DNA of 41,822 bases from a virus (IMGVR_UViG_2897346870_000006), one strand, 5' to 3'. Counted from the first letter of the stretch, positions 36,673 through 37,450 are shown. The notes: generated from the sequence alone by a model not told the origin. Numbers and translations: made by a program.

Positions 36673-36724
36673 CAACAACAAATATCTACTTTTTGTTGTT
36701 GATTTTTGCTACTTTAAGTAGCAA
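36673..36724. promoter_or_regulatory. AT-rich hairpin plus perfect palindrome (candidate OL operator near pL)
   Basis: Inverted repeat CAACAACAAA/TTTGTTGTTG (36673-36682 and 36692-36701), then the 9-bp-arm palindrome TTGCTACTT-T-AAGTAGCAA (36706-36724) sharing TGCTACTT with the OR-like repeats; a CATAAT -10-like hexamer follows. Confidence 0.4.
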
Positions 36725-36805
36725 CATAATGTAAGCTATCACGGACAGGCAGGACGCCCACGAAGTAGCCGCCGGTGGCGTATGAATGACCGGATGATTC
36801 GTTAG

Positions 36806-36833
36806 CAACAAAAAAGCGCCCTACAGGACGCTT
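36806..36833 (-). terminator. Putative intrinsic terminator downstream of the coiled-coil/zinc-ribbon gene
   Basis: Imperfect hairpin AAGCGCC-ctaca-GGACGCTT followed on the minus strand by a T7 tract. Confidence 0.4.
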
Positions 36834-36843
36834 AGCTCTTTAA

Positions 36844-36864
36844 CAATCTGGATATCCACAACAG
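36844..36864. repeat. Left inverted repeat flanking the gene at 36872-37363
   Basis: CAATCTGGATATCCACAACAG; its reverse complement matches the right repeat at 18 of 20 positions. Confidence 0.65.
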
Positions 36865-36871
36865 TAGTAAT

Positions 36872-37363
36872 CTACAGATTGCCGTTAAGTTTTCTGGACA
36901 ACTCCTCAATGGATGGAGGCGATACGTAATCCGGATTTTTATTCATCAGAAACTTATTTTCACAGTGGAGGCACCTGCTTTTATGAAAAAGCTCATCTTC
37001 GCTAACCGGGAATGGTTGAAGTATCGATACTATCTTTTGTCCAAAACATTTTGGGCAAAGATGCATGGTTATGCTGCCACCGTTCACGATTACCTCCTTC
37101 GAGTATACAAAAGTACCCGACTCAAGTTGGTTAAGGATATAGCCTTCCGTCTGAGCCTCAAAGTTTTCGAATTCTGCAATTTTAGCTTTGAGAGAAGCAT
37201 TTATTTCTTGATAAGAGCCCACCAGTTCAACGAGAGACACGCATTCGCGCTGAATAGACGCAAGCTTTGAGTTCAGCTCACCAATAGCCGCATTTACTTC
37301 AGCTTGAGTTTTTGCCTCGTTCATTAGTTTTGCAATCTGGGCTGTTTCACGAATAGCCGTCAT
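36872..37363 (-). CDS. Hypothetical coiled-coil protein with C-terminal CxxC...CxxC zinc-ribbon (163 aa)
   Basis: Start placed at MTAIRETAQIAKLMNEAKTQ...; C-terminal HLCPKCFGQK...SRCLHCENKF; the ORF-track extension to 37651 translates into arginine/proline-rich text over GC-rich DNA and is unlikely to be coding; own terminator downstream. Confidence 0.5.
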   Translation of the reverse strand: MTAIRETAQIAKLMNEAKTQAEVNAAIGELNSKLASIQRECVSLVELVGSYQEINASLKAKIAEFENFEAQTEGYILNQLESGTFVYSKEVIVNGGSITMHLCPKCFGQKIVSILQPFPVSEDELFHKSRCLHCENKFLMNKNPDYVSPPSIEELSRKLNGNL

Positions 37364-37401
37364 TGCTGCCGTTAATTCAGCGATCACATTGAATACTCTT
37401 A

Positions 37402-37450
37402 TTGTTGTTGGGGATATCCAGATTAACCGAATCCTTGTTGTTGGGGAATA
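37402..37450. repeat. Right inverted repeat plus partial tandem copy
   Basis: TTGTTGTTGGGGATATCCAGATT (37402-37424) and CTTGTTGTTGGGGAATA (37434-37450), 39 bp upstream of the start codon of the 163-aa gene. Confidence 0.65.

Follow-up and report, generated by a model that had tools for sequence, protein, structure and literature searches.

Functional BoxA elements of the gammaproteobacteria follow the consensus GYTCTTTAANA (Baniulyte et al., PMC5725501). BoxA protects long untranslated transcripts, among them the CRISPR arrays (PMC7665894) and suhB (PMC5725501). For the phage group to which the locus described here belongs, a put-type antitermination has been suggested (PMC12315714).

The DNA analysed (the window, 41,822 bp) represents a lambda-like E. 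coli prophage; segments of the chromosomes of APEC O18, IHE3034 and others match it at 100% identity. Its early-left type is common to the SfV, SfII, SfIV, ST64B, Kati and PhiR phages, with which the flanks of the region are shared, and this prophage holds no N homologue. OL and PL are followed by about 1.1 kb without plus-strand genes. The features of the region are collected in Table 1. On the other side of the operators, a ParA-family ATPase of 358 amino acids (35411-36487, plus strand), with no obvious partner, sits where lambda has rexAB after cI, and is possibly an accessory or exclusion gene with expression in the lysogen.

Table 1. Features of the immunity and early-left region (positions counted from the first letter of the window).
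Feature	Position	Strand	Remarks
cro	34166-34429	-	OR lies between cro and cI
cI	34479-35240	+	
ParA-family gene	35411-36487	+	rex position; terminator 36495-36514
Left arm of 10-bp inverted repeat	36673-36682		CAACAACAAA; upstream of OL2, 9-nt spacer
Probable OL2	36684-36700		ATCTACTTTTTGTTGTT; 23 bp centre-to-centre from OL1, equal to the OR1-OR2 spacing
Putative PL	36699-36727	+	-35 TTGATT 36699-36704; OL1 in spacer; -10 CAACAT 36722-36727
OL1	36707-36723		TGCTACTTTAAGTAGCA; operator as at OR
Conserved PL leader	36745-36805	+	about 60 nt; kept across many immunity types; cassette slot starts right after
Predicted outer helix, 5' strand	36797-36811	+	AUUCgUUAGCAACAA; predicted partner is the distal copy, 37435-37449
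Hairpin before BoxA	36814-36833	both	minus strand: moron intrinsic terminator; plus strand: BoxA-preceding hairpin
rrn-type BoxA	36835-36846	+	GCTCTTTAACAA; exact 12-mer, core of E. coli rrn BoxA
Left arm (L)	36845-36870	+	inverted degenerate copy of the 20-21-nt unit; holds 36857-36864; starts at BoxA end
Moron gene	36872-37387	-	171 aa; GTG start; PHROG 1244
Right proximal arm (P)	37399-37424	+	holds unit copy TTGTTGTTGGGGATATCCAG (37402-37421)
Putative moron promoter	37422-37451	-	-10-like GTTAAT 37427-37422; -35-like TTATTC 37451-37446
Right distal copy (D)	37435-37455	+	TTGTTGTTGGGGAATAACCAG; invariant in 58/58 repeat-framed cassettes
Structured leader continuation	37458-37858	+	non-coding; about 400 nt; conserved; reaches yfdP
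yfdP	from 37859	+	first plus-strand gene past PL; then yfdQ, yfdR etc., xis, int

The first-pass annotation of this DNA had counted five sites of the motif TTGTTGTTG, or its complement, and read them as a reiterated protein-binding or recombination half-site, clustered beyond chance and always beside palindromic elements. Four of the five are exact: 36673-36681 (minus strand), 36693-36701, 37402-37410 and 37435-37443 (plus strand), numbered here copies 1 to 4. The fifth (36857-36864) is degenerate, its complement reading CTGTTGTG. No further exact match to the motif or its complement occurs in the 41,822-bp window, and all four are confined to 771 bp. The comparison with expectation proposed in that annotation gave 4 observed against about 0.6-0.8 expected in 41.8 kb (0.76 by dinucleotide shuffles and 0.58 by a first-order Markov model of the whole window); at local composition, 0.025 would be expected in the local 1.5 kb, and the probability of at least four in any 800-bp window is about 1e-7 by an analytic estimate. 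The clustering was thus confirmed, as was the vicinity of palindromes, namely the OL1 palindrome (36707-36723), GGATATCC in both arms and a hairpin at 37459-37476. Nevertheless, the hits cannot count as four separate events, since copies 1 and 2 are the arms of a single perfect 10-bp inverted repeat (CAACAACAAA-N9-TTTGTTGTTG) and copies 3 and 4 form a tandem direct repeat of a 20-21-nt unit, TTGTTGTTGGGGA(A)TAWCCAG, 33 bp apart. The fair null is therefore that of two repeat structures sharing a 9-mer by chance, which is far less extreme.

The copies belong to two unrelated features, the operator/promoter region of PL and the repeat frame of a gene cassette placed downstream. About 200 related loci were compared overall, including 120 viral contigs gathered via a conserved 29-mer downstream of the repeats, and across these sequences the two modules assort independently. 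The immunity type of the window is found with three different cassettes, one of them without any TTGTTGTTGGGG, and the cassette of the window accompanies six or more other immunity types, in which the PL-proximal repeat is missing. Consequently, the single common site proposed earlier is not supported. One protein acting on all copies is rejected on the same ground and also because L and P vary in concert and D does not vary. What survives of the half-site proposal is the overlap of copy 2 with the putative OL2 and with the -35 of PL; in addition, one protein may bind both tandem right-hand copies (3 and 4).

The explanation favoured here has these two parts: operator and promoter copies at OL/PL, and a frame of BoxA and helices around an antisense moron in the PL leader. 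As a whole it is given a probability of about 0.5. Within it, the motif is most likely the 3' strand of long-range helices of the PL transcript and also a C/A-rich promoter/leader element of the moron on the other strand.

At OR, two 17-bp operators, TGCTACTTAAAATAGCA and AACTACTTAAAATAGAA, lie 23 bp apart. The OL2 candidate carries the left half-site CTACTT and is only 10/17 identical to OL1, and a related immunity type presents CTACTTTTTGTAGTT at the OL2 position with both half-sites intact. The spacing of OL2 and the intact half-sites of this relative argue that copy 2 (36693-36701) is the degenerate right half of OL2 entering the -35. The geometry of the putative PL equals that of PR (TTGCAT-N17-CATCAT, with OR1 inside the spacer), and the leader common to many immunity types begins just 3' of it. 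A sigma-70 promoter scan of 36400-37950 returned nothing at the threshold of the tool, so that PL and the moron promoter were assigned by comparison only. Copy 1 (36673-36682) does not match the operators. In the plus-strand RNA, folding places copies 1 and 2 in a hairpin of 13 bp (-10.5 kcal/mol, z -3.8) with AUUUUUG directly after it. This hairpin is absent from a related immunity type and may act as a back-up terminator of the cI operon.

The cassette lies between two conserved RNA segments, the PL leader and its continuation towards yfdP. At least 12 cassette length classes occur between them, in prophages that are closely related. The slot (36806-37458, loci L004-L123) is a gene-exchange hotspot, in which several classes carry convergent gene pairs. 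Seven classes have a common frame, with AGCAACAAAAAAGCGCCCTACAGGACGCTTAGCTCTTTAACAATCTGG on the left side and CCAGATTAACCGAATCCTTGTTGTTGGGGAATAACCAGG on the right side. The framed genes are unrelated, all on the minus strand, and belong to PHROGs 1244, 7681, 5286, 3983 and 6315, families without functional annotation; the Pfam hits of the cassette proteins are all sub-threshold. The moron protein of the window has an N-terminal coiled coil and a zinc-ribbon-like C-terminal CxxC...CxxC (CPKC...CLHC). In its homologues (55-94% identity) both the GTG start and the architecture of the flanks are preserved; they are located in prophages of Escherichia, Shigella, Buttiauxella and Kluyvera, and every sampled copy stands in the framed context. 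The conservation of the cassette motif over cassette types, genera and 55-94% protein divergence indicates that it is constrained there.

BoxA and the distal copy occur strictly together with the repeats. BoxA is present in 56 of the 58 repeat-framed cassettes and the distal motif copy in all 58, against 0/53 of the other cassettes in both cases. No second BoxA occurs in the window, even at 2 mismatches. The variants found in relatives (GCTCTTTAAAA, GTTCTTTAAAA, GCTCTTTAAGA, TGCTCTTTAACAA and TGTTCTTTAACAA) differ only at the Y and N of the consensus. BoxA sits on the PL strand, roughly 100 nt past the inferred PL, and precedes a long untranslated stretch. It is not essential for PL read-through, since cassettes without BoxA occupy the same slot. 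The hairpin that precedes it is more stable on the gene strand than on the PL strand in this window (-11.7 vs -7.5 kcal/mol), which fits a terminator role. A hairpin is always found ahead of BoxA; in other lineages it is a different one, with no T-tract on the gene strand, and thus it is not merely the moron terminator. The plus strand of the cassette is barely C-rich (22.3% C vs 20.1% G), so no obvious strong Rho loading site is apparent. Separately, the start of the left arm, ACAATCTG (36843-36852), is identical to the start of the rrnB boxC/processing stem, GACAATCTGTGTGGG. The phage arrangement would result if the rrn leader lost the DNA between its two ACAA repeats; the identity may be a coincidence or may reflect an rrn origin.

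The L and P arms flank the minus-strand gene as a 26-nt inverted repeat, 85% complementary, of which 25/26 positions pair on the plus strand when G.U is counted. The inner arms differ among cassettes and stay complementary (ATGACT/AGTCAT, GTAACCCTC/GAGGGTTAC, CTGA/TCAG, CTT.G/C.AAG). Matched arms outpair mismatched ones, only 1 in 20,000 permutations being as good. In the 16-bp helix, 90.6% of the cells are paired over 14 distinct arm pairs, compared with 16-49% in slid controls; changes on both sides affect 10 of the 16 helix pairs, and 0 of 500 shuffles attain the observed values. The replacement of the arms by unrelated yet complementary sequences argues for base pairing rather than for a common protein site, and the earlier proposal of such a site finds no support within the cassette, where the left and proximal right copies conserve complementarity and not sequence. 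The helix is about 25 bp long here and 12-14 bp in some cassettes. As in an rrn-type processing stalk, its 5' strand abuts BoxA and the pairing is kept by covariation.

The complementarity of an inverted repeat is by itself equally compatible with RNA and with DNA pairing. The strand bias is modest: G.U cells in the 16-bp core number 13 on the PL strand vs 3 on the gene strand (p=0.02, for lineages that are not independent). The helix-extension polymorphisms give a mixed signal, one favouring the PL strand and two the gene strand, and strand assignment by this means was dropped. When the PL-strand RNA is folded (36737-37480), both the MFE and the centroid structures contain two nested helices, the inner one and an outer one. 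The model weakly suggests that the outer helix forms between 36797-36811 and the distal copy. Owing to its three G.U pairs it pairs well on the PL strand only, and in the moron mRNA it is impossible, as the moron terminator precedes the outer partner. Similarly, a genuine -10-like element would put the moron start downstream of the outer half of the P arm, which would then occur in the PL RNA alone. On the other hand, the P arm of the 968 type retains GTTGTTGGGG without a left complement, and pairing is thus not the sole constraint on the motif.

The RNA on either side of the cassette is also structured. The hairpin of the PL leader covaries, with CCGGU..ACCGG here and CCUGG..CCAGG or CCCCA..UGGGG in relatives. 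In the downstream segment, the hairpins CCUGGUG..CGCCAGG and CCGGG-AGGCA-CCCGG covary in ST64B, phiES15 and a Kluyvera prophage (GGUGG-AGGCA-CCACC), and a terminator-like 13-bp hairpin (37673-37714) is followed by U6 (to about 37720). This segment may be an uncharacterised antiterminator/terminator leader. The Rfam scan of the whole window at gathering thresholds returned no family, and the 123-aa ORF at 37472-37843 (plus strand) is discounted on account of single-base indels in relatives.

The sequences themselves show the split into two independent modules, the BoxA match with its link to the repeats, and the covarying arms. From the sequence we infer the two transcription starts (PL and moron), Nus binding, antitermination, RNase III processing and protein binding, which could be connected as follows. 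In this N-less lambdoid prophage, similar to SfV and ST64B, the cassette would sit antisense in the PL leader, which is untranslated. The PL transcript would present, in this order, the hairpin, the rrn-type BoxA, the left arm, about 0.5 kb of antisense cassette, the proximal right arm and the distal copy. BoxA would recruit NusB/NusE and other Nus factors, as at the rrn operons and CRISPR arrays, and the polymerase would then keep elongating across the long untranslated stretch. The Nus complex would also keep the 5' arm close to the exit channel up to the appearance of the 3' arm, and the arms would pair into long-range helices enclosing the cassette RNA. The L-P helix of about 25 bp could be a substrate of RNase III.

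The gene strand may account for the remaining constraint. The putative moron promoter has an 18-nt spacer that contains CCCCAACAAC of the distal copy. In other cassettes and lineages its -10-like hexamer reads TATAAT (three lineages), TATTAT or GCTAAT. CCCCAACAACAA occurs twice on this strand, once on each side of the -10-like hexamer. The fixed proximal copy, the better-kept right copies and the persistence of GTTGTTGGGG without its complement indicate that the motif probably also serves the promoter or leader of the moron; the presence of CCCCAACAACAA in the promoter spacer and in the 5' leader would explain why the right copies are conserved beyond the needs of pairing.

The rival that survives best takes this gene-strand role as the whole explanation. 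The tandem CCCCAACAACAA would be a promoter, operator or leader element of the moron and the inverted left copy would be incidental. The units, at about -20 to -33 and +5 to +15, would bind a regulator, of the host or a conserved one of the phage, or else make up an unstructured C/A-rich leader acting as translational enhancer or as an Hfq (ARN)n leader. In 6 of the 7 cassette types, whose genes are unrelated, a fixed distance of 15-25 nt separates the proximal copy from the Shine-Dalgarno sequence and start codon downstream, and homologues down to 55% identity retain this position. Moreover, the -10-like hexamer between the copies drifts toward TATAAT, the right copies are conserved better than the left one, and AAC-AAC-AAU-AAG-AGU fits the ARN repeats described for Hfq (PMC4104026). 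Such an element, however, leaves unexplained the covariation of L and P into unrelated complementary sequences and the strict link to a BoxA on the opposite strand. The proximal arm of cassette 749 lacks the motif and keeps the inverted repeat, no candidate regulator is at hand and the promoter scan is empty at threshold. As a complete account it is less probable than the favoured explanation, and the combination of PL-transcript helices with a moron element is preferred.

A low-complexity coincidence is considerably less probable. Here, two unrelated repeat structures would share a run of TTG trimers and the motif itself would be functionless. Once each repeat is counted as one event, two independent occurrences are left; TTGTTG hexamers are at expectation window-wide (32 observed vs 31.5 expected), and the modules assort independently, a part of this view that the favoured explanation accepts. 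The conservation of the cassette motif across cassette types, four genera and 55-94% protein divergence speaks against the remainder.

Least probable of the three is the reading of the arms as DNA recombination sites, either the inverted termini of a small mobile cassette or the points of crossover in a segment that can flip. The inverted repeats do directly flank variable cargo in a conserved slot, different cargos having different arms, and the TTGGGG core loosely resembles the fim switch repeats; but among about 107 loci there are 0 inverted cassettes and between any cassettes no minus-strand matches, the target-site duplication is inconsistent (AAC/AAC in the window but none in the 968 and L204 types), the junction homology fades gradually without a fixed core end, and no invertase or transposase lies nearby, the recombination genes being only the integrase and excisionase of the prophage, more than 3 kb from the repeats. 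The recombination half-site of the first-pass annotation is likewise unsupported. An invertible segment was discarded for its single orientation in these loci and the lack of a nearby recombinase, and a TIR-bounded (MITE-like) element since there is no consistent duplication and the sampled copies of the gene family are all in the same framed slot, with none outside it.

Several other candidates were rejected. The left-arm ATATCCACA matches the DnaA box TTATNCACA at 8/9 positions; the right copies carry C at a critical position of the consensus. The CsrA-like ACAAGGAU in the D copy and the sigma-E and sigma-32 readings were made by eye and found no support. The GcvB R1 seed contains an 8-mer identical to the motif, and R1 targets look like the complement of the motif (PMC4104026). 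The 5' leader, at -12.9 kcal/mol against a background mean of -14.0, does no better as a GcvB R1 target than random windows, 59% of which are as good.

A wider reading, which we hold tentatively and as somewhat less probable than the two-part explanation itself, is that of a portable insulator: cassettes inserted backwards in the early-left operon of N-less lambdoid phages would bring with them an rrn-like module, in which the Nus factors carry the polymerase through and the helix folds the antisense RNA away. By analogy with 16S rRNA, the antisense stretch would possibly be excised via RNase III in much the same manner. If true, the frame would amount to a small phage version of the leader through which rRNA is transcribed and processed, employed with at least seven unrelated genes, and a host signal of rRNA antitermination and folding would have been borrowed by a phage. 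It would show how phages insert lysogen-expressed genes against an essential early operon without polarity, and would add a class of phage targets to BoxA/Nus regulation beside rRNA, suhB and the CRISPR arrays. The frame (BoxA and TTGTTGTTGGGGAATAAC) marks an exchangeable accessory-gene hotspot beside the immunity region. Positions near the immunity region often hold exclusion or defence genes.

The locus can be compared with five groups of known systems. With the OL/OR and PL regions of lambdoid phages it shares 17-bp partly palindromic operators, the 23-bp spacing (at OL for a probable OL2) and the overlap with the -35 and -10. It departs from them in the TTGTTGTTG inverted repeat, which is centred 5 bp off OL2, and in that only two operators are evident per side. 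The conserved structured leader directly 3' of PL in an N-less lambdoid recalls putL of HK022 in position and size, although blastn finds no similarity between putL and the PL leader; this leader lies outside the motif. The cassette resembles the phage morons, as a minus-strand gene with its own terminator and likely promoter, inserted as a variable element between conserved blocks; unlike these, a reusable frame (BoxA, inverted repeat and tandem unit) persists here while the gene changes.

Two further parallels concern BoxA. As in the CRISPR arrays, suhB and the lambda nut sites, a consensus BoxA is placed near the start of a long untranslated stretch after a promoter. In contrast to them, BoxA moves here with the cassette and not with the operon, and sister cassettes lack it; the lambda nut sites differ further in that N protein and a lambda-type boxB are absent here. 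In the E. coli rrnB leader, a hairpin is followed by BoxA (TGCTCTTTAACAA) and directly by the 5' strand of the helix spanning 16S, the same order and spacing as in the phage. The two BoxA elements are identical over 12 nt, and (T)GCTCTTTAACAA matches at 13/13 in lineages L180-L200. On the other hand, the phage helix has 12-25 bp vs about 30, and its loop is made of about 0.5-0.9 kb of RNA antisense to a moron in a phage early operon, in place of rRNA.
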